Positions 2,250-47,690 of a stretch of 64,000 bases of DNA are shown here, piece after piece. The notes under the pieces are model-generated. The model made no database searches and was not told the origin of the DNA. It saw nothing but the letters and a program-made list of their open reading frames with translations. How positions within the stretch are numbered: the stretch's first letter is position 1; each line of letters opens with the position of its first letter. The stretch is from Candidatus Buchananbacteria bacterium (GTDB lineage Bacteria > Patescibacteriota > Patescibacteriia > Buchananbacterales > UBA6539), in contig JBAYLH010000006.1 of NCBI GenBank assembly GCA_041664165.1, positions 143-64,142 on the forward strand, in the 5' to 3' direction. The position numbers were made by a program, and so were the translations under genes.

Positions 2250-3083
2250 ATGGACAGATCAAGACTGACAATTACGCTAAAAAAAGAGATTTTAAAGCAA
2301 CTTGATGAATATATTGATGGCGCCCGGATTCGAAACCGGTCTCACGCCATTGAGTATGTTTTAGTTAAGCAGTTTGCGCCGAAAATAAAAAAGGCCGTGA
2401 TTTTAGCCGGCGGCATCGGTTTGAAGATGCGGCCGTTTACTTATGAAATGCCGAAAGCCATGATTTTAGTTGCCGGTCGGCCGGTTTTGGAATATATCAT
2501 TGAAAATTTGCGCCGGTATGATGTGCGCGATTTGATTATTTCCATCGGTCATCAGGGAGCGAAAATTAAACAGCATTTCGGCGACGGTTCAAAATTCGGC
2601 GTCAAAATTACTTATGTCGAGCAAGGCAAATCCCAAGTCGGCACGGTGGCACCGCTTTTGCAGATTAAGAAAACGATCGGCGATAATCCTTTTATTGTTT
2701 ATTACGGTGATGTTTTGGCTAATATTGATTTTGACGACATGATTGATTTTCATTTCGGCAGTAGCGGGTTAGTGACGATGGCCTTAACTTCGGTCAATAA
2801 ATCATCGGATTGGGGAGTGGTGCGGGTTCAAGGCAGCCGGGTTTATTCATTTTTAGAAAAGCCCGATGCCAGAAAGGATTTATCCAATGTGATTAATGCC
2901 GGGATTTATATTTTTGAACCAAAGATTTTTGATTACCTTAATCCCGACTGCAAGAGATTGGAAAAAGATGTTTTTCCTAAGCTAGTTGAAGAACGGAAAA
3001 TTTTTGGCTATCTTTTTGCCGGCCAGTGGTTTGACGTGGGCAACCCCGAAATTTATAAATTAGCAGTCAAAGAATGGCGCTAA
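2250..3083 (+). CDS. Ribbon-helix-helix (CopG/NikR-like) domain fused to a sugar-phosphate nucleotidyltransferase (RmlA/ManC-like)
   Basis: N-terminal TITLKKEILKQLDEYIDGARIRNRSHAIEYVL has the RHH pattern. It is followed by AVILAGGIGLKMRPFT (the G-rich NTP-transferase loop) and a typical nucleotidyltransferase body. Confidence 0.7.
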   Translation: MDRSRLTITLKKEILKQLDEYIDGARIRNRSHAIEYVLVKQFAPKIKKAVILAGGIGLKMRPFTYEMPKAMILVAGRPVLEYIIENLRRYDVRDLIISIGHQGAKIKQHFGDGSKFGVKITYVEQGKSQVGTVAPLLQIKKTIGDNPFIVYYGDVLANIDFDDMIDFHFGSSGLVTMALTSVNKSSDWGVVRVQGSRVYSFLEKPDARKDLSNVINAGIYIFEPKIFDYLNPDCKRLEKDVFPKLVEERKIFGYLFAGQWFDVGNPEIYKLAVKEWR

Positions 3084-3154
3084 TCGCTAGCAATAAAAGA
3101 GTGAGAGTCTTTTTTTATTACTTACATTAATCAGATTTAAACTAACTCAATATT

Positions 3155-4162: not shown

Positions 4163-4303
4163 CCGGGTGGGCTATTTTTTAGGATAATTGGTAATTTTTT
4201 GAGCGGAACAATAATTCAAGTGATTAAATTGGGTATTTGACCAGTTCCAAATAAATAATTTTGTCACTTAGAATTGTTCGTCCTAACTTGGGAGGTTACC
4301 ATC

Positions 4304-5080
4304 ATGAATAGTGTGTTGTTCATTGATATTGGTTCTGATGTTCGCGATAAAACTAACAAAATAGTTGCCGGACTGCGCGCCCGCGGTATTTCGGTTTGCC
4401 ACCCTGAAAATAGCAAAGCCCTAGCTCCATCAGTAGCCCTCGGTCAGCAGTCTTTGGGCCAGCAGTTTGATGCTGTGGTTCATTTTGATCTTGGCATACC
4501 GCACCGCTTTACTTCGGTTCTGGAAGCTTACGAATTGACCGGTGTGCGGGTAATGAACCGGTACAATATTGCAAGTATGTTGTATAATCGGATTGGTTTG
4601 TGTATATTCTTACAGCAATACGCGATCAGGCAGCCGCGTTGGTATTACGGTTATCCTGGTGGTATTCCGGCCGATTTTGGACAGCAGGTTGTCCATAAAT
4701 CAGTTGATGGTCATCTTGTCCATCTGGTTGAACGCGGTCGAATCCATTCTTCAGATGAATTGGGTTTTTACCAGGAGCTGATACCAAACCATTCTGGTAT
4801 TACTCATACCGTCTATTGGATTTTCGGGCACTGTTTTACGGCGACCAAGTCGTGTGTTTTTACTTGCCCGGCAGAAGAGCGACGGCCCAAAGTCATGATC
4901 GACACAACTTTGGCATCGGAAATGGAAGTAGTTGATCAGATTTGGCGACAAAGTCAGCTCGACTTTTTCTGCGTTGAGTTTGTTGGTGACCATGTTATTG
5001 ATGTCAACCCTTATCCTAATCCGTTTTGTCATCCGGAAGCTGTCGGCTGGTTTGTCGATGGCATTAGCCAAGTTCTTTGA
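4304..5080 (+). CDS. ATP-grasp family protein (RimK/GshB-like fold), function unknown
   Basis: C-terminal FFCVEFVGDHVIDVNPYP resembles the ATP-grasp Mg-binding E..N motif. SD gggagg lies 9 nt upstream of the ATG at 4304. Confidence 0.5.
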   Translation: MNSVLFIDIGSDVRDKTNKIVAGLRARGISVCHPENSKALAPSVALGQQSLGQQFDAVVHFDLGIPHRFTSVLEAYELTGVRVMNRYNIASMLYNRIGLCIFLQQYAIRQPRWYYGYPGGIPADFGQQVVHKSVDGHLVHLVERGRIHSSDELGFYQELIPNHSGITHTVYWIFGHCFTATKSCVFTCPAEERRPKVMIDTTLASEMEVVDQIWRQSQLDFFCVEFVGDHVIDVNPYPNPFCHPEAVGWFVDGISQVL

Positions 5081-5145
5081 TGTGTCGGGATCAATTAGTT
5101 TTGGTCCCCCTTTTTTTAAAAAAATTACTGTGATAAAATTAAATT

Positions 5146-5739
5146 ATGATTGATGAAGCTATTAAAATCAAGCCAAGCACCAAAAAAGTTATTATTGGAT
5201 TGATAAGTCATTCAGATATTAGTGTTGACCGACTGCGCCATGAGATAAATCATATTTTTTGTGCTTTAACTTGGCTTTATAAATTAAACTCTAAGCCATC
5301 ATTAGCCTTAGAATTAGCAACGGCTCTTCATGATTGTGATCGGTTGTTTGATAAACGTCGTGCCCATCGTAAAAATTTTAAAAACTATATTGATTATAAA
5401 AAAAGCCATAGCAAGATTAGTGCTAAAATTGCGGGAGAAATTTTGATAGCCGTCGGCCAAAAATATCTTGTTAATCAGGTTAAAGATTTAATCATTGCTC
5501 ATGAATTTGGTGGTACCGTTTTGGCCAATAAGCTGAAAGTATGTGACAGCTTTGCTTTTTTTGATCAGAATTTATTAGATTATTATCGAGACGAAGGGAA
5601 TAGGGTGACTTTAGAAAAAATGGAATTTATGTACCAACGCTTAGATATTAAATCAAAAAAATTACTTTCGGCAAGTGCTTTAGATTTTAGATTAGTGCCT
5701 ACGTTAAATAATTATTTTTTGAAGATAAAAAATCAGTAG
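5146..5739 (+). CDS. Hypothetical protein, possible HD-domain hydrolase
   Basis: His/Asp pattern H..H...LHDCDR...H. The assignment is weak. Confidence 0.35.
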   Translation: MIDEAIKIKPSTKKVIIGLISHSDISVDRLRHEINHIFCALTWLYKLNSKPSLALELATALHDCDRLFDKRRAHRKNFKNYIDYKKSHSKISAKIAGEILIAVGQKYLVNQVKDLIIAHEFGGTVLANKLKVCDSFAFFDQNLLDYYRDEGNRVTLEKMEFMYQRLDIKSKKLLSASALDFRLVPTLNNYFLKIKNQ

Positions 5740-5978
5740 TAGTTGACAAAATATTACTAAAAAAATAGCTTTAATTAGCTATTTTTTTATTTTATCCACA
5801 ATTTTGTCGGAAAAAAATTGACAAGTTTTAAAATCCATTATAAGATAGCTATTATTAATATCCCGGTAGTGATCCCACACTTAATAGAGGAGATTACTGC
5901 CGGATAAAGGTTAAAACATAGTTGATAAAATATTCGTCTTTCACTTTTAATAAAACAAGTGGGGGACTACTACCGGGT

Positions 5979-6719
5979 ATGATTGAAAAAATCCTCCAAA
6001 ATTTAGGCCTAACTGACAAGGAAATCAAGGTTTATTTGTCATCTCTGAAACTGGGGCCAACACCGGTACGAAAAATTGCCCTGGAAGCCGGGATTAACCG
6101 CGGCACGACTTATGATATTTTAAAGGCTTTAATCGAGCTGGGCTTGGTCAGTTATTACCATCAGGATAAAAAGCAATATTTTATTGCCGAAGATCCGGCT
6201 AAGCTAAAGGATGTTTTAGAAAAAAAACAACAAGACTTAGAAAAGATTAAGGGCGATGTTGATCAGATTATTCCTCAACTAAAATCAATTTATGACAATG
6301 CGGAAAATAAACCGGTGGTTAAATTTTATGAAGGGGACGCCGGCGTTAAAATAATTTTACAGGACGTCATTGCCTCCTGCCTTGCGGCGGAAAAGAAAGA
6401 ATATTATGTTTATTCGTCTTCAACCATTAAAAAATATATTTATGAATTGTTTCCAGATTTTACCGATCAGCGGATTAAGGCCAACGTCAATGTCAAAGTA
6501 ATTTCGGTCGGACCGGGCGGTGAAATCCGGGGTTTAGACGAAAGAAAATGGCTGACGACCAAAGAAAGCGCCCCGACTTATACTTTGATTTATGCCGGCA
6601 AAGTGGCGATGATTTCCGTTGACAGTAATGACCGGCCGATTGGCATCATTATTGAAGATAACAATCTTTATAAAACGCAATGGATACTCTTTAATTTTGC
6701 TTGGCAGAAACTAGAATAA
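5979..6719 (+). CDS. TrmB-family transcriptional regulator (sugar-responsive type)
   Basis: MIEKILQNLGLTDKEIKVYLSSLKLGPTPVRKIALEAGINRGTTYDILKAL is the canonical TrmB N-terminal wHTH. The ORF-track start at 5922 is a TTG; the ATG at 5979 is preferred. Confidence 0.7.
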   Translation: MIEKILQNLGLTDKEIKVYLSSLKLGPTPVRKIALEAGINRGTTYDILKALIELGLVSYYHQDKKQYFIAEDPAKLKDVLEKKQQDLEKIKGDVDQIIPQLKSIYDNAENKPVVKFYEGDAGVKIILQDVIASCLAAEKKEYYVYSSSTIKKYIYELFPDFTDQRIKANVNVKVISVGPGGEIRGLDERKWLTTKESAPTYTLIYAGKVAMISVDSNDRPIGIIIEDNNLYKTQWILFNFAWQKLE

Positions 6720-6866: not shown

Positions 6867-8702
6867 ATGTGTGGGATAGTCGGTTACATCGGTTTAAAAC
6901 AAGCAAGCCCGATTTTAATTGACGGCTTGAAGCGGCTTGAATATCGCGGCTATGATTCGGCCGGCTTAGCGATTTGGGACGGTCAAAAAATCGGGCAAGT
7001 GAAATTAAAAGGCAAGATTTCGCAGTTAGCGGATTTAATCAAAGACCGGCAGCTTTCCGGCAGTATTGGCATTGCTCATACCCGCTGGGCGACTCACGGC
7101 ATTCCGTCGGAAGTTAACGCTCATCCGCATTTTGACTGCACTGGAAAAATTGCCATTGTTCATAATGGGATTATTGAAAATTTTTTGGCTTTGAGAAAAG
7201 TTTTGCAATCCGAAGGCCATAAATTTGTTTCGCAGACTGATTCGGAAGTCTTGGCTCATTTGATTGAGAAATATAAACCGGGCAAAACTTTGGAGCAAGC
7301 CGTGATTTTAGCTTTGAAACAGGTGGAAGGAACTTATGGTCTGGTGGTTTTTTGCGCCGATGAGCCGGATAAAATCGTGGCGGCGAAAAAAGGCAGTCCG
7401 CTGGTCGTTGGCGTTGGCCAGGGCGAATATCTAGTCGCTTCCGACGCTTCGGCGATAATTTCTTACACCAAACACGTGATTTACCTTGACGACAATGAAG
7501 TAATTACGATTACCGCTGGCAGCCATCAAGTTAATAACTTAATTAATAGTAATGGCATTGAAAAAAAGGTTGAAGAAATCAGTTGGAATCTAGAACAAAT
7601 TGAAAAAGGCGGTTTTGATACTTTCATGCTCAAAGAAATTTTTGAGCAGCCGGACAGTATTACTAATGCCTTGCGCGGCCGGGTTTTATTAGATGACGGA
7701 CAAGTTAAGATTAGGGGATTAGATGAAATTGAAAAAAGGCTGACATCAGTTTCGCGGGTCATTATTGTCGCTTGCGGCACTTCCTGGCACGCCGGCTTAG
7801 TCGGGGAATTTTTAATCGAAGACTTGGCTAAAATTCCGGTTGAAGTCGAATATGCCTCGGAATTTCGTTACCGCCATCCGGTCATTGGGCCGGACTGTCT
7901 CGTCATTGTTATTTCCCAATCGGGTGAAACCGCGGACACTTTGGCCGCTTTGGAATTAGCCAAGGAAAAGGGCGCAATTACTTTTGGTATCTGCAACGTC
8001 GTCGGTTCAACAATTGCCAGAAAAGTCGATGCGGGCTGTTTTTTGCATGCCGGGCCGGAAATCGGCGTGGCTTCAACCAAAGCTTTTACTTCACAGCTAA
8101 CCATTTTGAACTTACTGGCAGTTTATCTGGGTCGGCTCAGAAAAAATTTGTCAGCCGATAAAGCCAAAGAAATTTTAAAGGAACTTTTAGCCGTGCCGGC
8201 TCTGGTTAAAGAGTTGTTAGAGAAAAACGAGGAAATTAAAAGTTTAGCGAGTGAATTCAAACAAGCCACTAATTTTTTGTATTTAGGCCGCGGCTTAAAT
8301 TTCCCGGTGGCTTTGGAAGGCGCTTTGAAGCTGAAAGAAATTTCTTATATTCATGCCGAAGGCTATCCGGCCGCGGAAATGAAACACGGCCCGATTGCCT
8401 TGATTGATCAGCAGTTACCCGTATTATTTTTGGCTAATAAAGATTACACTTACGATAAAATTGTTTCTAATATTTTAGAAGTTAAGGCCCGGGGCGGCAG
8501 AGTAATTGCCATTGCTTCGGTTGGGGATGATGAGATTGCTAAAATCGTCGAACATGTGATCTACGTGCCAAAGGCTTTAGACTTTTTAACCCCGATTTTA
8601 AACACGATTCCGCTTCAGCTTTTGGCTTATCATATTGCGACTTTGAAAGGCTGCGACGTTGATAAGCCGAGAAATTTGGCTAAGAGTGTAACGGTTGAGT
8701 AA
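6867..8702 (+). CDS. glmS: Glutamine--fructose-6-phosphate aminotransferase
   Basis: MCGIVGY N-terminal nucleophile, two SIS domains, 611 aa. Confidence 0.95.
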   Translation: MCGIVGYIGLKQASPILIDGLKRLEYRGYDSAGLAIWDGQKIGQVKLKGKISQLADLIKDRQLSGSIGIAHTRWATHGIPSEVNAHPHFDCTGKIAIVHNGIIENFLALRKVLQSEGHKFVSQTDSEVLAHLIEKYKPGKTLEQAVILALKQVEGTYGLVVFCADEPDKIVAAKKGSPLVVGVGQGEYLVASDASAIISYTKHVIYLDDNEVITITAGSHQVNNLINSNGIEKKVEEISWNLEQIEKGGFDTFMLKEIFEQPDSITNALRGRVLLDDGQVKIRGLDEIEKRLTSVSRVIIVACGTSWHAGLVGEFLIEDLAKIPVEVEYASEFRYRHPVIGPDCLVIVISQSGETADTLAALELAKEKGAITFGICNVVGSTIARKVDAGCFLHAGPEIGVASTKAFTSQLTILNLLAVYLGRLRKNLSADKAKEILKELLAVPALVKELLEKNEEIKSLASEFKQATNFLYLGRGLNFPVALEGALKLKEISYIHAEGYPAAEMKHGPIALIDQQLPVLFLANKDYTYDKIVSNILEVKARGGRVIAIASVGDDEIAKIVEHVIYVPKALDFLTPILNTIPLQLLAYHIATLKGCDVDKPRNLAKSVTVE

Positions 8703-13182: not shown

Positions 13183-13208
13183 ATTTGGTGGACCCGAGCG
13201 GATTCCCC
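13183..13208 (-). repeat. Decayed copy of a tRNA 3'-end (tggtggacccgagcggattccccgcc)
   Basis: Similar to the 3' acceptor/T-arm of tRNA-Ala at 14426 (tggtggactcgaggagattcgaactcc). It cannot fold into a tRNA. Confidence 0.6.
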
Positions 13209-13584
13209 GCCAGAGCCTACCTATTGGCAGGTAGGGCGGGTCAGCCTTCGGCTGAGAACTCTCGACCCCGCACTAAAACCCGCGAAAGTTTTTTGCAAAG
13301 AGATTAACTTTAATTGGCGCAAAAGCCGCCTATGGCTGTTAAAAAATAATTATTTGTTTTAAATTATTGGTTTAGTGCGGGGCAAGCCTCCATATTGTCC
13401 CGATAATTTTGGTGGTGTTATTTTAGCATTTGCTCGAACTTTTTTCAACCAAGAATGAATCGTCCCGCCACCGCCTCACAAAGCCTCGGCAAAAAACTCT
13501 TTAATCATTTTTGCCTTTATTAATAACTTTTAATCGCTAATTAAAGCTTAATATAGCTTTTAATCCCCCTTTTTTAAAAATTTA

Positions 13585-14116: not shown

Positions 14117-14130
14117 ATATAGTTTTTTGG

Positions 14131-14155
14131 TGGACCCGAGGAGACTCGCCCCGAT
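14131..14155 (-). repeat. Decayed tRNA 3'-end copy (tggtggacccgaggagactcgcccc)
   Basis: Matches the 3' 25 nt of tRNA-Ala with substitutions. The T-arm partner is absent. Confidence 0.6.
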
Positions 14156-14236: not shown

Positions 14237-14292
14237 AAATAATTTGTGCGTCGGGAAACCCTTGACCCCCACATTGTCCCGACAAACTTTTG

Positions 14293-14318
14293 GACCCGAG
14301 CGGATTCCCCGCCACCTC
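14293..14318 (-). repeat. Decayed tRNA 3'-end copy (ttttggacccgagcggattccccgcc), preceded by an attgtcccga motif
   Basis: Near-identical to the copy at 13183. The upstream attgtccc motif also occurs at 13395 and 14405. Confidence 0.6.
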
Positions 14319-14793: not shown

Positions 14794-15114
14794 ATAGTAA
14801 AATAAATTCTAAATTCTAATATCTAAATTTAAAATGTTCCAAACGGTTTGAGATTGATGATTTGGAAAATTGAAGTTTGTTTCGGATTTAGAATTCCAGG
14901 CTTCGGCTTTAAGTTATTGGTGGACGATGTAGGAATCGAATCCCACACCAAAACCCGCGGTGTAGTTAGTTATTTTTTGAGCTTTTTTGGTCGCGGAACC
15001 GGCCGTGCCTTGTTTTTATATAATTTTAGTTTTGATTATTGGTTTGGTACGGGACAGGCCTATGATTTTTTTGGGCTTCGCCGGCCGGAGTCGGCTTTAT
15101 AGAAGTTAAATAAA

Positions 15115-19179: not shown

Positions 19180-19419
19180 AGTTTTATTGTAGCATTAAAG
19201 CCCGAAAACACAAAAATAATAAAGTCGCCCCTCACCCACCCCATCTCCCGAAGAACCTGCCTTGACGGTAGACAGGGAGAGGGGAATTAGCTCTAACCCC
19301 CTTCTATCCCTCACTTAAATTAAGGACAAGAAGGCTTTTTTTGGGCTTGGGTTGACTAAGCTATTCAAAGCTAGTAAGCTAAAGCCAATAAATAAGCTGT
19401 TTTGACAGGAGAAACAGCG

Positions 19420-19784
19420 TTTTACGCACGTCACAACTTATTAAGGGAAGGGGAAATCGTATGTCACACGGCAGTCACAAGACAACCAAACACGGAGAAA
19501 AAGGTGATGTCCGACGGAAGTTTCACCGCGGTGGGCCTCAATGCGTTTCCAGGCGGAAGCTCAGCAAAAAGAAAAAGAATGAACAACAGTAGAGAGAAAG
19601 GGAAGGTAGCTATGGCCAGCGCCTCAAAAAAAAGAAAAGGAATTGGAGGGTGGAAGCCGGAAAATTGCCCCGGCGGCGGTAGTGAAAAGATCAAATTCCG
19701 GACACACTTAAGGTCCGGACCGAGAAAAAAGCGGCCAAAAGGGCCACCACCAAAGAACAGATAAGAGAGGAGACAACGATAACG
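19420..19784 (+). other. Purine-rich (A+G-biased) leader of about 365 nt upstream of the purM-like gene, a candidate cis-regulatory RNA
   Basis: The + strand is strongly A/G-rich. The ORF-track ORF 19402-19764 and two short basic ORFs are more likely artefacts of this composition. Confidence 0.35.
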
Positions 19785-20966
19785 ATGAAAAAGTATACGG
19801 AAGACGGAGTTGATACCGTAGAAGGCGACAGCCTCAGTGCCTGTGCTGGTAAACTTTGTGCCAGTACTTACGGGAATTCACCTTTGATCGAGGTGTATGA
19901 TATGTCGCAGGGCAACTTTCGCGGGCCAAGGGGTTATCGTTTGGTCCAAGTACCTCCCGATTGCGTGATGACCTTGGCACCCGATGGAGTCGGTACTAAG
20001 GTCGTGGTCATCGATGCTTCGTTTGGTCATCGCAAGGCCGGGTTTGACCTAGCGGCGATGACCGGGATGGACATTACTCGCTGGGGTGGCAAACCATTGG
20101 TTTTCACTAACGTGCTGGATACTTTCACGATTGGCAAACAGGGTGACAGAACTAACGTCGCCAGTCGGGAGCTTCTTGCCGGTTTAGTTGATGCCGCCAA
20201 AGTGCTTCAAATGGTTGTGCTCAATGGCGAAACAGCGGAATTGTCCAGTTGTGTTGGTTCGGAAAACCCCGACGCGACCGTGATGTTCAATTGGGCTGGT
20301 GTGGCCTGGGGTATTTATCACCCGAAAAAGATGATTCTTGGTGACACTTTGGCACCGGGACAGAGCATCATGGCTCTGAAAGATTGGTTTCGATCCAACG
20401 GTCACAGCTCAGCGCGCAAGGCTTTGGCTATGCATTTTGGGCCAAAGTGGTGGGAGAATCCTGACGCTACGGAGACTATCGCCGCTGTGGCGACGCCATC
20501 GATGTTGTATGACCCGTTTCTTAATCACGTTCACGGCTGGGACAATCCGGATTTGTGTCCGATAATACCGATCCATCTGATCGTCCATAATTCCGGCGGA
20601 GCCATCGAGGACAAATTCGCCAAAGATTTGTTATTTCCGGCGGGACTTTCAGCGGAACTCGACGACTTGTTCGATCCACCGCAGGCAATGAAAGATATTG
20701 TTACCTGGCGGGGGATGACTGATTTGGACTGGTTAGGTACCTTCAATGGTGGCCAAGGTGCTTTAGTTGTGGTTGATCCGGAAAATGAAGGTCAGTTTAT
20801 TGATTTGGCCGAGAGCTACGGAGTCACTGCCAGGCGTTGTGGTCGGATTATAGAGACTGCTGCCAGCGAAATGCCGCAGGTGTGCGTCCTTTCTAAGTTC
20901 ACTGGTGAATGGGTTACACTGAAATCGAAACCTAAACAAGCGACTACTGACGGAGGGTTAAGGTGA
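19785..20966 (+). CDS. purM: Phosphoribosylformylglycinamidine cyclo-ligase (AIR synthetase, PurM family)
   Basis: EDGVDTVEGDSL, LAPDGVGTKV, NGETAELSS and TFNGGQGALVVV align with PurM conserved blocks. GC is about 55%. Confidence 0.75.
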   Translation: MKKYTEDGVDTVEGDSLSACAGKLCASTYGNSPLIEVYDMSQGNFRGPRGYRLVQVPPDCVMTLAPDGVGTKVVVIDASFGHRKAGFDLAAMTGMDITRWGGKPLVFTNVLDTFTIGKQGDRTNVASRELLAGLVDAAKVLQMVVLNGETAELSSCVGSENPDATVMFNWAGVAWGIYHPKKMILGDTLAPGQSIMALKDWFRSNGHSSARKALAMHFGPKWWENPDATETIAAVATPSMLYDPFLNHVHGWDNPDLCPIIPIHLIVHNSGGAIEDKFAKDLLFPAGLSAELDDLFDPPQAMKDIVTWRGMTDLDWLGTFNGGQGALVVVDPENEGQFIDLAESYGVTARRCGRIIETAASEMPQVCVLSKFTGEWVTLKSKPKQATTDGGLR

Positions 20967-21706
20967 TGAATGATACAATCCGCTTTGCCATAGTTGCTTC
21001 CGGCGGCGGCACTGGTGCCAATGCGGTGATGACCGCTTACCGTAAAAAACAGTTGCTGCCGGAGTGCGAGATTGTTGAATTACTAGTTACCAAGGCTGGT
21101 GCTGACTGTTTGAAAAAGGCAGAGGCACATTAAATTCACACGACGGTTATTGCCCGCCATGGAAATTTCTGGGATGAACATCTCAAAATCGACCGGCCAA
21201 TGATGCAGAATGATTTTGAAATAGCAGTCAGCTATTGGCTTGCGGTTAATGAAATCCGGCTCGTCTTTTTGCTGGGATGTATTCACCGGATGCCTGCCGA
21301 TTGTATCGGCAAGGATGGCCGGTCGATAGTAATGTATAACATCCACCCAGCCGATCCGCTTGCCCACGGCGGCCAAGGAATGTACGGTTTAGCGCCACAC
21401 AGGCACGTTTTGGCCGAAATTCTTGACCAAATTACCCGAGAGCAGAAAGGGATAGAAGAAGAGTTTTTCACCTGGCCAACTGTTCATGAAGTGACTGCGG
21501 AATATGACCAAGGGTCGCCGTTGTTGACTCACGCCGTGAGAATATCAACGGCTATCATTGAAAAGGCGCAGGAACTGCAGCGCGCCGGCCAACCTTTGGA
21601 CGAAGCAGCCAAGATGTTGCAAGCTTTGGTGCTGCCCTGCGAGCACTTGTTGCTCCCGGCAGCAGTCAATTTAGCCTGCCAACGGATTTTGGTTGCTAAG
21701 GGCTAA
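20966..21706 (+). pseudogene. purN: Phosphoribosylglycinamide formyltransferase (PurN-like) with a single in-frame TAA at 21131-21133
   Basis: FAIVASGGGTGANAV N-terminal block, then ...KKAEAH*IHTTVIARHG..., then NIHPADPLAHGGQGMYGL (the NIHPSLLP block). Both halves are in the same frame (20966 and 21200 are both frame 2). The ATG overlaps the purM stop. Confidence 0.7.
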
Positions 21707-21788
21707 GTGAGTTGTACCTTGTAGTTATTACCGCGTTTTCTTGGTTTCGTACCGAGGATTCGCGGTCTCCCGACGTTTGCTTCGCGAA

Positions 21789-21838
21789 AATCGGGATCCC
21801 GACTCGCTGCTTCGCGGTGACGTCGGGATTTTTTTTAT
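21789..21838 (+). terminator. Terminator built on the palindromic unit atcgggatcccgac...gtcgggat + T8
   Basis: atcccgac/gtcgggat 8-bp stem with a 17-nt loop, followed by tttttttt. A second atcgggatcccgac unit lies at 21882-21933. Confidence 0.55.
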
Positions 21839-21990
21839 TATAAAATACTAATCTACGAATATCCCGATGTTTAGCTTCGCTAAAATCGGGATCCCGACTT
21901 CTTTATTATTAATAATATAATGTACGTCGGGACATCCGAATGCTGGTATCCGCGCCAGCCGGACATTACTTTTTCAAATTGAATATTCGC

Positions 21991-22035
21991 GAGTTTTGGT
22001 GAGGGGTTAAACTTGGCAAGAATAATATTACGCCC
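21991..22035 (+). repeat. Partial copy of the REP-like element tail (gagttttggtgaggggttaaacttggcaagaataatattacgccc)
   Basis: About 90% identical to 26093-26136. Confidence 0.7.
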
Positions 22036-22388
22036 AGCCGAATGCCGGTATCGGTAGTTTGACTAAACTATTAAAAATCATTAAGATTAAGCAAGTTTAG
22101 AAGCGTTGTTCTACTAAATAGTCTGCCTTTGTCCCAATAAATTGGGACTACGGCGAGACAAGTCCGCCTTCAGTCGCCTTTGGCGACTTTCGGCGAGACA
22201 AGGAGGGACAGCGTTTTTGGTACGTTTACAATCCGTGTTTCCATTCGCCCAAAGTGAGGGCGGATGTTGAGAATAGATGAAGAAGGATGGGAAACTGTCT
22301 TGAGGAAAGGTTGGGTAGAGTATGGTAGTAAAGGAAATATCTTTTTGGGATGGGCTAGGTGTATTTGGTGCGGAAAGGAGAGTGTCAC

Positions 22389-25271
22389 ATGGTTTCATCG
22401 GTCTATAAGACTAGGACCGGACTTGATCCGGCTGCCGCGCAGTTGTTTAGGCGACTGCATCAGAATGGTTATACCAAGGTAACCGCAGTTAGACTTGAAC
22501 GAGTACTCCGGGTCGAAGGTGTTGATCCTGAACAAGTCGATAAGTTAATGCCACTTTTTTTCCATCCAGTTTTGGAGGAGATAAGTGGTGCTTCTCTGCT
22601 TGATGAAGCAATGGGGCCGATAGTTGAAGTCTGCTATCAGCGCGGTGTTACCGATCCGGAACTCAAGTCAACCAGGCATGCCGCCCAAGCTTTGGGCGTC
22701 GACAATCTGGAATGGGCGCGTTTGGCAACCCGCTATCAATTCTTTGGCGTGGATGGTCAAACTGCCCGTGAGATTGGTAAACGTTTTCTCTATAACGATC
22801 AAGTGGAAACCGTTATCGAACCCGGAGAAATTTGGGAAACACTTAAGCCGCAGGGAAAATCTGTCGGCGTAGAGTATCTCGATATAGCCAATATGGACAT
22901 CGAGGCGATGAGAACTTTGTCGTCCAAGCGCCGTTTGTTTATGGATGATGCCCAACTTCTCGCCGTTCGACTCTTCTTTGCTGAAACCGAACCACACTTG
23001 ATGCGCGATGGCGAACTGGAAATGACGGCAGCGGCCTGGGGTGATCACTGCAACCACACGGCGATGAAATCACTTGGTTTGCTACAAAGGATTCAGCAAG
23101 CCACGGCGCGGATTAACCATCCGCTGCTAATTTCGGCTTTTGTTGACAACTCTGGCGTGATGGAATTCTTCCTCGGCCAAGCCATCAATTTCAAGGGTGA
23201 AACCCACATCTCGCCTTCGTCACTAGCTACCTATGGTGGAATCATGACCAAGCACGGTGGAGTAATTCGTGATATCCAGTTTACCGGTCAAGGTGCTTGG
23301 CCGATTGCTGGGACAACGATTATGGGCATTTGTGATCCCAGGATTGCCTGGGTCGATGTTCCTAAAGGTGCACTTCATCCGCTGGTGATTTTGTTGGAAT
23401 CTATTCGGGGTACCAAGGACTACTGTAATCCGATGGGGATTCCAATGGCTTGGTCGCAATACCTAGTTCATCCCGGGAACGTTAAGTGTCTTGCCCTTGG
23501 TCATTCAATTGGAATTATGCCGGCAGATCGGGCGCAAAAGGGTGAACCACAACCCGATGATCTCGTCGTTTTGATCGGCGGGGATACTGGTAATGACGGG
23601 ATGCACGGAGCCACGGTTAGCAGTGCCGGATTGACTCATGAAAGCGCGGCAGTTGACGGCACCCACGTTCAGATCGGTATGCCAATTGAAGAGCGGGTGT
23701 TTATGGAAGCCATTCCGGTTCTTCGTGATGCCAACTGTATTCGCGCTTGTACTGATTGCGGTGCGGCTGGTTTGTCTTCGGCCGTGGGTGAGATGGGCAG
23801 CAAGACCGGGGTGTTTGTAAACCTGGCTTTTGTGCCACTCAAAACCCGAGGGTTGAAGCGTTGGGAAATCTGGCTTTCGGAAAGCCAGGAACGCGGCGTG
23901 CTGGCTATTCCGCCAGATAAACTTGAGTTAGCGTTGCAGATTTTGCGCGACTACGGTGTTCCAGTAACTGTCATCGGCGTGTTTACCGACACTAAACGTT
24001 GTCAGGTTATCTATGACGAAAGTCAAAACTACGGTACTTGGTTAACCAATCGGACTACTAGCTTGGCCGGCGAAGTCGTTGTTGATTTGCCCTACGGTTT
24101 TCTGTCGCAGGAATGCCCGTTACCCAAAATTGAAGTGAGAGAACCCAAAGAGAAGCCGGAGGCATTTCGGCCGTCGGTGCCAGCTAATGAGCCAGCCTGG
24201 GTCGGTTTGGTTCAAAAACACTTAGGCCAGTTCAATATTTCGGATCAGTCAGGCGCCGCGCATCAATTTGATCAGACGGTTCAGGGTGCAACTCGGTTGG
24301 CGTATATGGGAGGATATGATGAACGGATGCCTGACGAGCTCATGGCTACTACGCCGATTTTGGGTGAATCTTATACAGTTGGTCTGGCTAATGCCTGTAA
24401 TCAATTCTATGGTGATGTTGACCCGGCCGGTCAAGGTCGGTTGGTGATGGCTCAGGCGATGACGAGGCTGGTGGCAGCCGGTTTTTCGTCTGACGACATT
24501 GTCTGTAACGTCAACCTTTACACCTCACGAGTCGTTGGTTTTCCCGAGAATGCCTGGCGGTTGAAGCAATTGGTCGAGTATGGCTACGCTCCGGCGTCGG
24601 AAGAACTCGGCATGCCAGTGGGTTCTGGTAAGGACAGTTGTAGCGGCACTTTTGCCACTGCCGATGGTCGCCACATTCACGCGCCATTGACTCTAGATGT
24701 CTTGGCCGTGGGTCGGATGCCGGACTACAGACGACTGATTCCTAAGGCCTTCTCGCAGCCTGGTGACAAGCTGGTGCTGTTTCATCAAGGTCTGAAGGAA
24801 ATCAATCTCGGTGGATCAGTGTTTCTAGATTTGTTTGACCATCGTCGTGGCGACAAGTTACCGGTCTTGGATCTCAAAGACCTGCGTCGTGGACTCATTA
24901 ACTACCATCAGATGCTAATGAGTCTTAATTGGTCGGCGGGTGTTCACTCGCGATCGGTTGTGGCCGAAGGCGGATTGATTCGGCGGTTGTTTGAGATGTG
25001 TTACGGCGGCGATTTAGGCTGCAAAATCGACCTGCCCGAAAGTTGTGATGGCGTTTTGGAGTGGCTGTTTGGTGAACCCAATAGTGCGATTCTTTTGGCC
25101 GTTCCAGAAGTTGATCCGTTGCTGAATTCGCTAAGCGAATGCACCGTTCTTGGAGAAGTCACGGCCGAACCGACAATGGCCGTTTCTTATCACAGAGAGC
25201 CGCTTTTCTCCGAAACGATAGCGACTTTGGCAACTAACTGGGCGAAGACCTTTACGGAGGTGGTCATATGA
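22389..25271 (+). CDS. purL: Phosphoribosylformylglycinamidine synthase subunit PurL with N-terminal PurS-like extension (PurS-PurL fusion)
   Basis: DHCNHTAMKS, GGVIRDIQFTGQGAWPIAG, GDTGNDGMHGATVSSA, VQIGMPIEE and WLSESQERGVLAI match PurL blocks. SD aaggagag lies upstream of the ATG at 22389. Confidence 0.8.
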   Translation: MVSSVYKTRTGLDPAAAQLFRRLHQNGYTKVTAVRLERVLRVEGVDPEQVDKLMPLFFHPVLEEISGASLLDEAMGPIVEVCYQRGVTDPELKSTRHAAQALGVDNLEWARLATRYQFFGVDGQTAREIGKRFLYNDQVETVIEPGEIWETLKPQGKSVGVEYLDIANMDIEAMRTLSSKRRLFMDDAQLLAVRLFFAETEPHLMRDGELEMTAAAWGDHCNHTAMKSLGLLQRIQQATARINHPLLISAFVDNSGVMEFFLGQAINFKGETHISPSSLATYGGIMTKHGGVIRDIQFTGQGAWPIAGTTIMGICDPRIAWVDVPKGALHPLVILLESIRGTKDYCNPMGIPMAWSQYLVHPGNVKCLALGHSIGIMPADRAQKGEPQPDDLVVLIGGDTGNDGMHGATVSSAGLTHESAAVDGTHVQIGMPIEERVFMEAIPVLRDANCIRACTDCGAAGLSSAVGEMGSKTGVFVNLAFVPLKTRGLKRWEIWLSESQERGVLAIPPDKLELALQILRDYGVPVTVIGVFTDTKRCQVIYDESQNYGTWLTNRTTSLAGEVVVDLPYGFLSQECPLPKIEVREPKEKPEAFRPSVPANEPAWVGLVQKHLGQFNISDQSGAAHQFDQTVQGATRLAYMGGYDERMPDELMATTPILGESYTVGLANACNQFYGDVDPAGQGRLVMAQAMTRLVAAGFSSDDIVCNVNLYTSRVVGFPENAWRLKQLVEYGYAPASEELGMPVGSGKDSCSGTFATADGRHIHAPLTLDVLAVGRMPDYRRLIPKAFSQPGDKLVLFHQGLKEINLGGSVFLDLFDHRRGDKLPVLDLKDLRRGLINYHQMLMSLNWSAGVHSRSVVAEGGLIRRLFEMCYGGDLGCKIDLPESCDGVLEWLFGEPNSAILLAVPEVDPLLNSLSECTVLGEVTAEPTMAVSYHREPLFSETIATLATNWAKTFTEVVI

Positions 25272-25990
25272 GTGAAAGAGTGAGAGTTTTAATACCGTAT
25301 TTTCCGGGTGTTAATTGCCACCGAGAAACAATGTACGCTTTCAGGAGCGTTGGAGCTGAACCGAGACTAGGATTACTTTCGGCCTTAATGGATGGAACCT
25401 GTCGTCTCGATGACTGCGATATCCTCGCTTTAGCCGGCGGCTTTGCTTTCGGTGATGATCACGCCGCCGGTCGGGTGATGGCTATTGACTTGACACGACG
25501 CTTCGGTGATCAATTGAGGCGAGTTGTCGAAAAACATATTCCGGTTATCGGGATCTGCAATGGCTTTCAAGCCCAAATGGAAACAGGGCTATTGCCTGGC
25601 GATGGCGAAATTGGTCAACCGACTGCGGTTTTGGATCATAACGTCACGGCTAGGTTTGAGCACTGGCGGTTTACGCCAGTTGTTTTGCACGATCCGGTTG
25701 ACGTTGGCTGCGTTTGGACCAAAGGCCTAGATGGAGCCAAGATTCGTCTGCCGTCCGCACATGGACAAGGATTTCCGGTGCTACCTAATGGCCCGGACTC
25801 GTATCACGTCATGGCGACATACGGTGCCTATGAAGGCGATAGTACCTACATCGGCGTTGGTGGCTCTAGCCCCAATGGCAGTAAAATTGCCGGACTTTGT
25901 ACCAAGTACTGCGCCGGTTTGATGCCTCATCCCGAACGGTCTGAGGATGGTCTAGTCATCTTCGAGGCAGGGGTTAATTCTGTTCGTTGA
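25268..25990 (+). CDS. purQ: Phosphoribosylformylglycinamidine synthase glutamine amidotransferase subunit PurQ
   Basis: GICNGFQ nucleophile motif and HPER. Its start overlaps the purL stop (ATGA). Confidence 0.8.
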   Translation: MSERVRVLIPYFPGVNCHRETMYAFRSVGAEPRLGLLSALMDGTCRLDDCDILALAGGFAFGDDHAAGRVMAIDLTRRFGDQLRRVVEKHIPVIGICNGFQAQMETGLLPGDGEIGQPTAVLDHNVTARFEHWRFTPVVLHDPVDVGCVWTKGLDGAKIRLPSAHGQGFPVLPNGPDSYHVMATYGAYEGDSTYIGVGGSSPNGSKIAGLCTKYCAGLMPHPERSEDGLVIFEAGVNSVR

Positions 25991-26032
25991 TTTGTCCTAC
26001 CGCGTGGCTTTCCTTTGGGAGAGCCCGCGGTC

Positions 26033-26136
26033 TTTTTTTAGTATTTGTCTGCGAGGGCAAGCCGATAGGTGCTGCCCGAGCAGTTACAAATACTAAGTTT
26101 TGGTGCGGGGTTAAACTTGGTAAGAATAATATTACC
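26033..26136 (+). repeat. Structured REP-like element: long imperfect hairpin (ttagtatttgtctgc...gcagttacaaatactaa) plus tail ttttggtgcggggttaaacttggtaagaataatattac
   Basis: 10+4 bp stem. An inverted copy lies at 34590-34660 and a partial tail copy at 21991-22035. It sits just after the purQ terminator hairpin. Confidence 0.75.
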
Positions 26137-26261
26137 CATACATCCAAAACTACCAATAATAGGTAAACAAAAAATCACTCCGGTTTTTCGGAGAGATTCT
26201 AAATCTTGTCAAAATAAGTTAATAAATATATAATAGGAAAGTTTAAAAGAGTTGTTGGCCA

Positions 26262-26338
26262 GCCCATGTAGCTCAGTTGGTTAGAGCGCCACCCTTATAA
26301 GGTGGATGTCCCTGGTTCAAGTCCAGGCATGGGCACCA
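26262..26338 (+). tRNA. tRNA-Ile with genomically encoded anticodon UAU, CCA encoded
   Basis: GCCCATGTAGCTCAGTTGGTTAGAGCGCCACCCTTATAAGGTGGATGTCCCTGGTTCAAGTCCAGGCATGGGCACCA, anticodon loop CTTATAA. Confidence 0.8.
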
Positions 26339-26403
26339 TATAAAATTGAATAGTTGACAATTGGCGGATTATCGCTTATTCTAAAAAAGTTAACATTTAT
26401 TAA

Positions 26404-26480
26404 GGGCGTATAGCTCAGTTGGTTAGAGCGTTACGTTGACATCGTAAAGGTCCGTGGTTCGAGTCCACGTACGCCCACCA
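26404..26480 (+). tRNA. tRNA-Val (anticodon GAC), CCA encoded
   Basis: GGGCGTATAGCTCAGTTGGTTAGAGCGTTACGTTGACATCGTAAAGGTCCGTGGTTCGAGTCCACGTACGCCCACCA. Confidence 0.9.
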
Positions 26481-26481
26481 A

Positions 26482-26512
26482 AAAATCTCTGTGAAAATTC
26501 AGGGATTTTTTG
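26482..26512 (+). terminator. Rho-independent terminator after the tRNA pair
   Basis: atctctg-tgaaaatt-cagggat followed by tttttg. Confidence 0.6.
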
Positions 26513-26591
26513 TTTTAAAAAATCTGAACGCGGGGTTCAGCATCTTCATCTTTGTTGGGATTTTTAGCCATGCTAGAAATTGGCCGGGTTT

Positions 26592-30276: not shown

Positions 30277-31368
30277 ATGGATCAAACTGAGCAAATAAAA
30301 AGGATGCTTTTTTTCTGCATCGAAACCGCCTTAGAACGAGGGGCTTCGGATATTCATCTTTCGCCCGGCGCTCCACCTCGGATCCGGTGGCATGGCAAGA
30401 TCGTTGATCTTGATTGGCCAGTTATCAATCCGTCTGATACCGAACAAGCCATGAGGCTGCTTTTAGCCAAGGATAACCAAGATGAGGTTATCGGACCGAA
30501 TGGTGATGCTGATTTCGCTAAAACCTTTGACCAGTTTCAAGCTCGGTTTCGCGGTAACATCTGCCGGACCCAGAATGGCCTAGTCATTGCGTTGCGGCAT
30601 TTGCCTAATGACATTCCGGCAATGGAGGAGATAGGTTTGCCCAGCCAAGTGATTCAGCGTTTACTCTCTTGCCAGCAAGGTGGCATTATTTTAGTCACCG
30701 GCCCGACTGGTTCTGGTAAGACGACGACTTTAGCTTCAATGATTAACTACTTGAATGTGACTCGGGCGTTACACATTATTACGGTTGAGGCGCCGGTAGA
30801 GTATGTTCACCCACACAAGAGATCAAGTGTTGATCAGCGGGAAATGCCGCTGGATACGCCGTCGTTTGCAGCGGCGGTTCGGTGTGCTTTACGTCAGGAT
30901 CCTGACGTGATTTTGGTCGGTGAAATGCGCGACTTAGAAACCATTGCGGCCGCGATCACAGCGGCGGAAACCGGCCATATGGTCTTAGCCACTCTGCATA
31001 CTAATTCGGCGGCGGATACGATTAACCGGATTATTGATGCGTTTCCGCTTAGCCAGCAGTCACAGATTAGGGTTCAATTGGCCACGTCTTTGCTGGCGGT
31101 GATTTCTCAGCGACTTTTGCCGCGGGCCGATGATTCCGGTCGGGTAGCGGCTTTCGAGTTGATGATCAATAACACGGCGATCAGGTCTCATATCCGCGAT
31201 AACAAAACGTTGCAGATTAACTCAACGATTGAAACCAGCAAGAAAGAGGGGATGGTTCGTTTTGATGATCATTTGGCCGGGCTAGTTAGTAAGAGGATTG
31301 TGGCTTTTGAAACCGCTTTGAAGTTTGCCTGCGAGCCGAAAGATTTTCCCGGCCGGGTAAATCGGTAA
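30277..31368 (+). CDS. pilT: Type IV pilus retraction ATPase PilT/PilU family
   Basis: Walker A GPTGSGKTTTL, Asp box, His box, PilT-type length (363 aa). Confidence 0.8.
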   Translation: MDQTEQIKRMLFFCIETALERGASDIHLSPGAPPRIRWHGKIVDLDWPVINPSDTEQAMRLLLAKDNQDEVIGPNGDADFAKTFDQFQARFRGNICRTQNGLVIALRHLPNDIPAMEEIGLPSQVIQRLLSCQQGGIILVTGPTGSGKTTTLASMINYLNVTRALHIITVEAPVEYVHPHKRSSVDQREMPLDTPSFAAAVRCALRQDPDVILVGEMRDLETIAAAITAAETGHMVLATLHTNSAADTINRIIDAFPLSQQSQIRVQLATSLLAVISQRLLPRADDSGRVAAFELMINNTAIRSHIRDNKTLQINSTIETSKKEGMVRFDDHLAGLVSKRIVAFETALKFACEPKDFPGRVNR

Positions 31369-34397: not shown

Positions 34398-34589
34398 ACC
34401 TTATTATTATAGCAATTATAATTTTAATCTACGAATTAATGAATAATATGAGTACTCATAGGCCTGTCTGGGTAATTATTCGACGCTATGTTAAACATTC
34501 GGTGTGTGTATTTGGCTGCCTCGTCGGCTCGCCTCGCTTCCGAGTCGGAGCGGGCTCGCCTCACTCGACGCGAGTCGGAGCGGGCGAGA

Positions 34590-34660
34590 CGGGTTTAACC
34601 CCGCACCAAAATTAGTATTTGTAGCTGCTCGGCTTCGCCTCGTAGACAAATACTAAAAAA
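34590..34660 (-). repeat. Inverted copy of the REP-like element (gtttaaccccgcaccaaaattagtatttgt...acaaatactaaaaaaaa)
   Basis: The reverse complement aligns with 26033-26115 over about 75 nt with a 13-nt internal deletion. A GC-rich repeat patch (cgagtcggagcgggc x2, gctcgcctcgc) lies immediately 5' at 34500-34590. Confidence 0.75.
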
Positions 34661-34708
34661 AAGACCCCGCACCTTTTTCCTGAAACAAGTTCAGGATTAG
34701 TGCGGGGT
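34661..34708 (-). terminator. Terminator of the GC-rich orphan gene (ccccgcac...gtgcgggg with nested hairpin, then T-run on minus strand)
   Basis: 8-bp outer stem enclosing cctgaa-acaag-ttcagg. The minus-strand reading is followed by cttttttttag. Confidence 0.65.
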
Positions 34709-34734
34709 TGAATTGAGCCGAGCGGCTGGTATGA

Positions 34735-35706
34735 TCAGGCGCGCGGCAGGGATTCGAGAAAGCGCTGTCGAGTGAAAAGGGAAAAATCGCAGCGATCCGG
34801 ATCGATGGCCTGATTGGCCAACGAGAACAATACCGGAAGGCAGGTCCTCTCGCCGGGAAGAAGCTGCACTTCAGAGCCGATGTCTTCCATCTCAACCATT
34901 GCTGGACCGGGGTTTCCCGTCTTTGACCACGGACCAACGTACATCGCGGCGTTGCACCCGGGGATGGGGTAGGACAAATTGCGATCGAAAGGCATCGCGG
35001 CCTTGAATAGCGTTTGGTCGCTGTCCGGCATAATCATGGCTTGCCCGCCAAAGGGGGAACACCAGGCGCGTTTAGCCTCAAAGCCAGTTGGCCGGAGAAG
35101 GTGCAGCCACTGCCCGTTCATGATAGTTCGACTGAATTGCGCATCGCCTTCGGCGCTGGTTTCGTGGCCACCACCCCAGCTTGGGAAGTGCACGATCGTG
35201 GATGAATCCCAAGCAGCATTGCCGGTGTTCAAGCGACTGGCGTAGAACGCGTTGGTACCCACCGGGTCGGTGCAGGTGATTGGCCAGATTCCGCCGGCAA
35301 TGAGCATATCTCCGGCATTCTCGACGAAGTTGACCACCTCGACCATGTTGTCCGCTAGGGGCCGGACAATGAACCCTTTGACAAGCTGCATTGCGTCCGG
35401 AGGTGCCGTGAAAACGAAGCTGTCGTCATCGAGCGATTTGATTTCGATTGGGCCAGTGTCGGGAGTGTAAGCCCCGTCGTGTTCGTCCGCGCCCTTCGAT
35501 GCCCACCAGATCCGGTGGCCACCGATCAACTTCCACAACCCGCGCCCGAACTTACCCTTCGAATCGAAATAGAGCAAGTTCCTTTCCATGCTTGAGCCGA
35601 GATGGACGATTCGCAGAGCCGTCGTGAGGATCACCAGTTCGATTCCGGGCAGACTTAGTTGAAATGCTGGTTGATCATGAAAATCAACGTACTTTCCCGT
35701 AAACAT
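34735..35706 (-). CDS. Hypothetical protein, 323 aa, GC-rich (about 58%), no recognizable domain
   Basis: A long ORF with SD aggagt upstream and a dedicated terminator. Its composition is unlike the flanking genes. Confidence 0.55.
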   Translation of the reverse strand: MFTGKYVDFHDQPAFQLSLPGIELVILTTALRIVHLGSSMERNLLYFDSKGKFGRGLWKLIGGHRIWWASKGADEHDGAYTPDTGPIEIKSLDDDSFVFTAPPDAMQLVKGFIVRPLADNMVEVVNFVENAGDMLIAGGIWPITCTDPVGTNAFYASRLNTGNAAWDSSTIVHFPSWGGGHETSAEGDAQFSRTIMNGQWLHLLRPTGFEAKRAWCSPFGGQAMIMPDSDQTLFKAAMPFDRNLSYPIPGCNAAMYVGPWSKTGNPGPAMVEMEDIGSEVQLLPGERTCLPVLFSLANQAIDPDRCDFSLFTRQRFLESLPRA

Positions 35707-47473: not shown

Positions 47474-47547
47474 GGTGGCCTACGGGAATCGAACCCGTAA
47501 CGAGAGTGCCACAAACTCTAGTGATAACCATTTCACCAAGGCCACCA
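47474..47547 (-). tRNA. tRNA-His (anticodon GUG) with encoded G-1
   Basis: RC reads G-GTGGCCTTGGTGAAATGGTTATCACTAGAGTTTGTGGCACTCTCGTTACGGGTTCGATTCCCGTAGGCCACC. Confidence 0.85.
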
Positions 47548-47617
47548 TAAAGCCACCTTTGAGTTGATATTGTCAATCGGGATCCCGACTTCATTAATAA
47601 TATAATAATTTTTTGGG

Positions 47618-47690
47618 TCGGGAAACCCTCAACGAGAGTGCCACAAACTCTAGTGATAACCATTTCACCAAGGCCACCATGGACTAATTT
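47618..47690 (-). pseudogene. Pseudo-tRNA-His: intact 5' two-thirds, deleted T-loop and lost 3' acceptor strand
   Basis: 47640-47690 is identical to 47497-47547. The T-arm is reduced to gggtttcccgac and the acceptor 3' strand is replaced by an A-run. Confidence 0.7.

Follow-up and report, generated by a model that had tools for sequence, protein, structure and literature searches.

Short non-coding repeats that recur behind unrelated genes raise the question of whether they are mobile elements, regulatory signals, scars of recombination or copied spacer DNA. At the locus considered here, three copies (A, B and C) of such a repeat with partly overlapping content span 12.7 kb, two of them behind the GC-rich purQ gene and a GC-rich orphan gene. 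An earlier note had read them as one structured unit of 104 nt that accompanies compositionally foreign genes, either as a mobile REP/MITE-like element or as a 3′-UTR module inherited from a common donor genome.

The contig and its relatives

The window, that is, the whole stretch of 64,000 nt that was analysed, is nearly all of one 66,454-nt metagenomic contig from an uncultured member of the Patescibacteria (CPR) near Candidatus Buchananbacteria, and copy counts for this organism refer to these 66 kb of one contig. The same sequence is present in ENA ERZ27249449 k141_1347139, in the NCBI MAG GCA_041662345.1, in JGI 3300037810 and in two Logan assemblies. As copies A, B and C are identical in these independent assemblies (ENA, NCBI MAG, JGI and Logan) at all positions covered, the repeat is not an assembly artefact. 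The end of a Logan contig at the edge of copy B was not counted as evidence for the repeat; the longest shared exact word is about 19 nt, and the k-mer size usual in Logan-type assemblies is assumed to be larger than this.

Most of the window has a GC content of about 37-45%, and several stretches come close to 50%. The RNA genes of the contig comprise a 3′ fragment of the 23S rRNA, the 5S rRNA and seven tRNAs. An ORF for a LAGLIDADG homing endonuclease (176-706) lies immediately 5′ of the final ~250 nt of the 23S rRNA (844-1088), a position that implies an intron in the 23S gene; introns in 23S rRNA genes are common in CPR bacteria.

The window was compared with loci of sister Patescibacteria (L053, L055, L057, L064, L066 and L068), whose gene order is that of the window: purSL-purQ, tRNA-Val/Ile, DHH, (ValRS), TyrRS, response regulator, (PilT), GT4 and the orphan gene. 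Orthologs of the orphan protein in other Patescibacteria have 60-71% identity and those of purQ 66-71%, with the purSL and purQ of L066 being true orthologs (62.5% and 66%). The GC content in the sister genomes is 52-60% for the pur genes, PilT and the orphan gene, against 35-42% in the genes next to them. Since these genes are syntenic and equally GC-rich in the sister species (60-71% protein identity), their composition is a stable property of the clade and does not mark recent imports, and the description of purSL-purQ, PilT and the orphan gene as compositionally foreign has to be given up. The GC-rich stretches lie at 19785-25990, 30277-31368 and 34735-35706 in the window, at 4200-6600 and 15600-16200 in L055 and at 3183-10717 in L066; they hold pur genes, PilT and the orphan gene at 50-60% GC in genomes of 35-42% GC.

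Modular composition of the repeat

The three copies are mosaics and do not form a single 104-nt unit (Table 1). Copy A has the composition X-O-Y, copy B is X-O-Z, in which Z is unrelated and GC-rich, and copy C is W-O-Y, in which W is unrelated; solely the 19-nt core O is common to all three.

Table 1. Positions of the repeat copies, their modules, the wider motif and the adjoining terminators in the window
Feature	Position	Strand	Length	Content
Copy A	26033-26136	+		T-tract, hairpin X, core O and tail Y
Copy B	34593-34663	- (inverted)		T-tract, X and O; no Y tail
Copy C	21992-22031	+		Core O (C to A, GGTGAGGGG) and tail Y; no hairpin
Module X, copy A	26038-26096	+	59 nt	Hairpin
Module O, copy A	26097-26116	+		Core GTTTTGGTGCGGGGTTAAAC
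Module Y, copy A	26117-26135	+	~20 nt	Tail TTGGTAAGAATAATATTAC
Module O, copy B	34593-34611	-		Core TTTTGGTGCGGGGTTAAAC, then unrelated GC-rich Z
Module X, copy B	34612-34656	-	45 nt	Hairpin, outer stem as in A, shorter tip
Inverted doublet of the 14-nt motif	13266-13382		117 nt end to end	CCCCGCACTAAAAC ... GGTTTAGTGCGGGG; ends predicted to pair
Second inverted doublet	34599-34707		109 nt	Orphan terminator, X and core of B; ends pair
Degenerate motif copy	15041-15054	+		GGTTTGGTACGGGA; left flank ATTATTGG
purSL-purQ intrinsic terminator	26000-26039	+		Stem CCGCG..CGCGG, then TCTTTTTTT; from fold and orthologs
Orphan-gene intrinsic terminator	34657-34712	-		Arms CAACCCCGCAC and GGTGCGGGG, then TCT8

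Each module occurs far more often than expected, which upholds a real repeat family over chance similarity of terminators. The core TTTTGGTGCGGGGTTAAAC is found three times with at most one mismatch (at 21994, 26098 and, on the minus strand, 34593) where 0.06 matches are expected, the hairpin pattern TTAGTATTTGT..ACAAATACTAA twice (0 expected) and the tail CTTGGYAAGAATAATATTAC twice (0.02 expected). Copy A is identical to copy B in 65 of 71 aligned columns (26031-26116 against 34593-34663), apart from a 14-nt indel at the hairpin tip (pairwise BLAST, E=3.5e-13), and to copy C in 38 of 40 bases (95% over 40 nt; BLAST, E about 1e-9). The clustering of the three copies is weak evidence alone, as three random points in 64 kb would lie this close with p ~0.10.

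The hairpin of copy A is built from an 11-bp AT-rich outer stem (TTAGTATTTGT/ACAAATACTAA), followed by CTGC/GCAG and a GC-rich tip. Its predicted folding energy is -32.7 kcal/mol (z=-8.0 against shuffles), and that of the hairpin in B is -14.9 kcal/mol (z=-3.3). The hairpin is thus real, and its proposed length of about 60 nt holds for A, not for B; the core O is predicted to be unpaired in A. Covariation, which had been suggested as a check, did not appear: there are no compensatory pairs between A and B (0), and one A-B substitution disrupts pairing on one strand and yields a G-U pair on the other. The tip is reshaped by the 14-nt indel yet stays self-complementary, and this hints at selection for hairpins or at a mechanism generating them.

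A 90-nt patch of about 70% GC at 34505-34592 adjoins copy B and has internal repeats (CGAGTCGGAGCGGGC twice and GGCTCGCCTC twice); its motif CGAGGCGA(A)GCCGA is also found as the interior of hairpin X. A small ORF that runs through the core was rejected as a gene, its FGAGLN peptides being merely the core in translation.

Terminators and hypervariable spacers

Each copy sits in a spacer between an intrinsic terminator and the next promoter. Copies A and B do lie behind the GC-rich purQ and orphan genes, as the earlier note had stated, but not directly downstream, because a terminator intervenes at both sites. A GC-rich stem with a T-tract, directly after the gene and conserved in orthologs, is found 5′ of both copies; these terminators adjoin the repeat and are separate from it. 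The purQ terminator is ancestral and outside the repeat proper, and its tail GGTCTTTTTTT is also present in copy B. The similarity of A and B starts within this tail, which occurs in the window solely at the purQ and orphan terminators; the same holds for GGTCTTTTTT, which is ancestral at both. The arms of the orphan terminator are two inverted copies of the GTGCGGGG motif.

Behind purQ, both boundaries of the spacer are conserved: L055, L064, L066 and L068 have the pur terminator (ACCCGCGG...CCCGCGGTCTTTTTTT) as well as the convergent tRNA-Val terminator on the opposite strand (AAACAAAAAA and a hairpin). Between the two terminators, the relatives have 4, 14, ~48 and ~58 nt of mutually unrelated sequence. 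The same spacer measures 125 nt in the window (26040-26164) and is mostly X-O-Y, which was not found in the orthologous spacers after purQ of L055, L064, L066 and L068. Next to this spacer, the tRNA-Ile(UAU)/tRNA-Val(GAC) pair (26262-26480) has the opposite orientation to that in L055 and L066. A remnant of the tRNA-Val terminator is left at 26165-26194, with an inverted copy 3′ of the tRNA genes (26486-26515), which points to an inversion via the palindromic terminator.

Behind the orphan gene, the terminator (CCCCGCAC...GGTGCGGGGTCTTTTTTT) is conserved in L053, and a weak hairpin comes after it there, with arms that can be aligned to those of X at the same spacing (A.TTTGT.TA.GA ... TACAAATAC); a second core is absent after these two elements in L053. 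L055 and L057 have long hairpins directly after the orphan terminator with sequences unrelated to X.

Copy C lies ~285 nt past a split PurN-like ORF and ~360 nt upstream of purSL, within ~255 nt of lineage-specific filler that extends from a conserved complex terminator to the conserved purSL promoter and leader. This copy had been described as a lone tail after purN; the tail is confirmed, together with the core, but the ORF is PurN-like by eye only and has no Pfam match. The filler holds further local duplications (21768-21804/21862-21899, and CCGAATGCYGGTATC twice), and a PurBox-like reading of CCGAATGCYGGTATC was rejected, as it is not conserved in L066.

The sister species thus keep the GC-rich genes, their synteny and the orthologous terminators, with unrelated filler in place of the element. 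This refutes a 3′-UTR module from a common donor and argues against a conserved cis-element.

The wider 14-nt motif

The core is part of a wider motif of 14 nt, GGTTTRGTGCGGGG, with eight copies on the 66-kb contig against about one expected. Seven matches with at most two mismatches lie in the window (0.92 expected), and the eighth copy, which is exact, lies in the 2.1 kb of contig past the window. The 8-mer GTGCGGGG is the most over-represented of the contig (8 observed against 0.36 expected from an order-3 Markov model). In the window it is observed 7 times against 1.55 in dinucleotide shuffles, with sites at 13266/13375 and in both arms of the orphan terminator, where the earlier note had already seen it recur. 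The sites are intergenic in 7 of 8 cases and use both orientations equally.

Two pairs of motif copies form the inverted doublets of Table 1, whose interiors are unrelated, while at least four copies are singlets (n=2 doublets in 66 kb). The left flank ATTATTGG is common to the motif copies at 13369, at 15041 and at the contig end, and the left flank of copy C resembles that of the motif copy at 13273 (TTCGCGRGTTTT). Flanks around further motif copies are also shared mosaically, and the extents of the shared flanks are ragged (~85, 40 and ~12 nt). Five of the eight copies stand 100-400 nt upstream of the next gene and are co-oriented with it, at distances that vary. The motif was not found in ~53 kb of sister loci, with the exception of the conserved orphan terminator of L053.

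Searches for mobility and for known elements

No transposase, integrase, recombinase or reverse transcriptase was found among the window ORFs scanned, the sole mobility-type protein in the window being the LAGLIDADG endonuclease of the rRNA intron. Terminal inverted repeats are absent from the ends of the 104-nt unit (TTTTTTTAGTATTTG; GTAATATTATTCTTA in reverse complement), and its sole inverted repeat is internal, namely the stem of X. The target-site duplication that might have been expected was not found: the insertion at 26040-26164, as defined against the sister loci, is flanked by TCTTTTTTT and AAACAAAAAA, and these do not form a direct repeat. In copy B, the T-tract and X lie between the two copies of a 10-nt direct repeat, GGTGCGGGGT, the first of which is the ancestral terminator arm. 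The suggested REP/MITE-like mobility is therefore doubtful for the 104-nt unit and retains some ground in the 14-nt motif, which is over-represented and extragenic.

Searches of Rfam 15 gave matches at the gathering score to rRNA and tRNA only, and around the three copies all matches with E up to 10 were at chance level. In the window, a covariance model of X-O matched only the orphan terminator, copies A and B and, of copy C, the core; it had no match in 83 kb of sister loci. Scans for the exact core gave 3 chance matches in 185,579 species genomes and 42 matches in metagenome contigs, none of the latter with shared flanks; the organism's own contigs are apparently absent from both collections, so these scans say nothing on the copy number in its own genome. 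Among IMG/VR viral contigs, the core had 4 chance matches and the hairpin pattern had none. A full-text literature search for REP, MITE and DUS in Patescibacteria returned no relevant report. A promoter within O-Y was considered and rejected, as there is no acceptable -35/-10 pair and the real promoters lie further downstream.

Origin of the copies

The repeat is of a generally familiar kind, intergenic and specific to its lineage. Its copies stand in mosaic relationships to each other, lie in hypervariable spacers, are absent from the sister species and have no linked mobility genes. They are recent and specific to the lineage, and most likely without a dedicated function, a lack which we infer. 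The account that we prefer is a lineage-specific duplication of short patches of spacer DNA, anchored on short shared sequences and devoid of dedicated function, which is plausible if still short of probable.

Such a sequence of events would start from the terminator with X in the spacer between the orphan gene and GT4 (copy B) as the older locus. This direction is suggested by the alignment of the orphan terminator and of the arms of X with L053, which makes B old, and by the ~92% identity of A and B, which makes A recent; X is probably ancestral at site B. About 75-85 nt (X-O) would then have been copied behind the purQ terminator, with the left junction in the tail GGTCTTTTTTT that was already common to both sites, and the purQ/tRNA spacer would have exchanged a 40-nt O-Y patch with the one that precedes purSL. 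Judged by the sister loci, X-O after purQ and O-Y upstream of purSL appear to be recent and specific to the lineage, and relatives would do without any copy at their orthologous sites. Likely ways of copying would be ectopic recombination of short patches, gene conversion or template switching during replication, and short homologies may have served as anchors, namely the terminator tail GGTCTTTTTTT and the motif GKTTTRGTGCGGGG, present eight times on the contig. The duplication of spacer patches explains the ragged extents of homology, the hypervariable location, the absence from relatives and the clustering within 12.7 kb. Short patch duplications are also frequent elsewhere on the contig (tRNA fragments and a 57-nt piece of tRNA-His) and in sister loci.

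Against patch duplication stands the REPIN-like look of the motif, which contains the contig's top 8-mer, is extragenic in 7 of 8 sites and forms doublets of 109 and 117 nt. As the core lies within both duplications, it could be a recognised site and not just a microhomology. In addition, some long hairpin lies directly behind the orphan terminator in each sister species, with unrelated sequences.

A miniature mobile family of the REPIN/MITE type, in which GKTTTRGTGCGGGG would be the end or recognition sequence and the transposase would be encoded elsewhere in the genome, is rather unlikely. The doublets at 13266-13382 and 34599-34707 would be its replicative units, and A, C and the singlets decayed or partial insertions. 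RAYT genes are usually flanked by REPs, and REPINs reach tens to hundreds of copies genome-wide. In REPINs, REP sequences pair up as hairpin-forming doublets, and RAYT transposases move them (Bertels & Rainey 2011, PMC3116915). The over-representation and extragenic location seen here match the criteria by which REPINs are defined (PMC3116915). The two inverted doublets may fit as well, in numbers too small for a comparison with REPINs, whose predominant and better-conserved unit is the doublet. The motif also resembles REPs in being a short oligonucleotide used in both orientations and often found just 3′ of genes, in the pairing ends of its two doublets and in the restriction of the family to one species. 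It differs in that neither a RAYT (Y1/IS200-like protein) nor any other transposase is encoded among the window ORFs, no more than eight copies were counted in 66 kb, the motif is non-palindromic and the doublet interiors are unrelated. Furthermore, the extended homologies (X-O and O-Y) have ragged ends, unlike those cut by a transposase, and at B the doublet has for its left end a terminator arm that is ancestral and conserved in L053. With MITEs such as Correia/NEMIS, RUP and ERIC, the repeat shares a length of ~100 nt, an intergenic position next to terminators and promoters and the ability to form hairpins, but the 104-nt unit has neither TIR nor TSD, there is no parent IS, and the copies share different sub-segments with no full-length consensus. 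The exact core met with chance matches alone in the species genomes and metagenomes, which apparently lack the organism's own contigs. It is unlikely that GKTTTRGTGCGGGG is the end or recognition sequence of an undescribed REPIN-like family in Patescibacteria, which would seed terminator-like inverted doublets and drag variable flanks (X, Y) along to give mosaic copies, or, less likely still, that it is a signal of the DNA-uptake type. Like the DUS of Neisseria and the USS of Pasteurellaceae, the motif is short, over-represented and free of strand bias, with inverted pairs that form terminators, and the AGTGCGG of the USS core AAGTGCGGT also occurs in some motif copies. Unlike those signals, it has a density of ~1 per 8 kb as opposed to ~1 per kb, is nearly absent from coding sequence and is missing from ~53 kb of sister loci except for one terminator.

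It is improbable that the repeat is a functional cis-element, with O (with or without X) as the site of a regulator or nucleoid protein, or X as a back-up terminator or RNA-stabilising 3′ stem-loop. X folds well in both copies and is followed by UUUU, long hairpins of some kind follow the orphan terminator in L055 and L057 too, and the co-orientation of five of the eight motif copies with a gene 100-400 nt downstream would suit a regulatory site, but the distance to that gene is not constant, the orthologous spacers in L055, L064, L066 and L068 lack X-O-Y, no compensatory pair and no Rfam match support a conserved RNA, O is predicted to be unpaired in A, and O-Y has no promoter-like hexamers. 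If X has any role, the simplest would be that of an additional stem-loop with UUUU after it, downstream of the main terminator. As in tandem intrinsic terminators, a predicted stable stem-loop with (G)UUUU follows directly after the T-tract of a canonical terminator; as opposed to them, the stem of X is AT-rich at its base, has four U only and is not conserved at orthologous sites. Very improbable is a reading in which O is the att-like crossover core of a site-specific recombination system (derived from a tRNA 3′ end, or attC/dif-like) and X-O-Y, X-O-Z and W-O-Y are junctions left by the integration or cassette exchange of GC-rich gene blocks. Flanks are indeed exchanged around a common core, as expected of attP, attB, attL and attR, and the 40-nt direct repeats of C and A bracket purSL-purQ, but the window has no integrase or recombinase, B is inverted relative to A and C, and sister species that lack these sites have purSL-purQ and the orphan gene in syntenic positions. 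The reverse complement of O, CCCCGCACCA, resembles a tRNA acceptor end, and the contig does have repeated fragments of the tRNA-Ala 3′ end and a partial tRNA-His duplicate. This likeness is, on the other hand, no better than that of shuffles: the best local alignments to the seven tRNAs were equalled by 52-94 of 300 shuffles (17-31%), relaxed ARAGORN found no hidden tRNA, and a tRNA-derived att remnant was rejected. An attC is a single imperfect hairpin, R''-L''...L'-R', directly after a cassette ORF, and occurs in arrays of one orientation served by an IntI integrase. GTTAAAC fits the integron consensus R' (GTTRRRY), and in B ATTCAAC fits R'' (RYYYAAC), whereas A and C have no R'' partner, the R''/L'' partner that an attC fold requires is missing from A, and no integrase was found in the window. 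The cumulative GC skew climbs throughout the window and never reverses, which leaves neither a terminus nor a context for dif, and both the attC-like and dif-like readings (GTTAAAC; GGTGCG...GTTAAA) were rejected on architecture, orientation, the lack of a recombinase and the GC skew.

Further features of the pur region and of tRNA-like fragments

The PurN-like frame is split into ORFs of 56 and 168 aa (20963-21133 and 21200-21706) in every assembly, and neither has a Pfam match. The purD gene, present in L066, is missing from the window (19180-19785), where tblastn gave no match for the L066 proteins of the purM, purN and purD types. These observations indicate that the upstream half of the pur cluster was replaced or is decaying.

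A conserved promoter (TTGACTAA-N17-TAAGAT) with a leader of ~110 nt precedes purSL (window 22096-22290; also 19340-19400). L066 has the same promoter and leader also upstream of purD (6891-7000 and 3011-3120; 110 nt, 81% identical within L066). The predicted structure of the purSL leader is a long stem (AACGUUGUCU/GGGACAGCGUU) around a hairpin, in which 8 pairs are changed on both sides; it has no Rfam match, and the leader in the window carries a 40-nt internal duplication. Judging from this model, it could be an undescribed leader or riboswitch of purine operons.

The 5′ part of tRNA-His is duplicated (47624-47680 against 47492-47548; 57 nt, 96% identical) 132 nt from the gene, and a palindrome near the duplicate, TCGGGATCCCGA, occurs twice more in the spacer upstream of purSL. 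Intergenic patches of 55-61 nt are duplicated within a few kb in L061 (4582-4642/7016-7076), L066 (12261-12315/15561-15615) and L053 (11418-11475/11840-11897); these patches are locus-specific and some are palindromic. Low-copy local repeats in spacers seem to be a general habit of Patescibacteria genomes. Three fragments that resemble the 3′ end of the neighbouring tRNA-Ala lie on the minus strand at 13187-13212, 14128-14154 and 14288-14314 and end in ...CTCGGGTCCA(CCA). One pair is 100% identical over 24 nt, neither ARAGORN nor Rfam calls any of them, and they may, by their sequence, be att-like relics of integrations at tRNA-Ala.

Implications for patescibacterial genomes

If the duplication of spacer patches is the true explanation, the finding is an ordinary one and shows how spacers that flank terminators turn over in a reduced CPR genome. 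It also calls for caution, as composition together with a local repeat is poor ground for inferring a foreign origin or shared modules; the premise of a foreign GC-rich block is corrected by GC-rich genes that are stable and syntenic across the sister species. Patescibacteria genomes are thought to be nearly repeat-free. Were the motif instead to mark a REPIN-like family spread over the whole genome, this could be the first such family described in Patescibacteria and would serve well as a marker for mobile DNA within such genomes.
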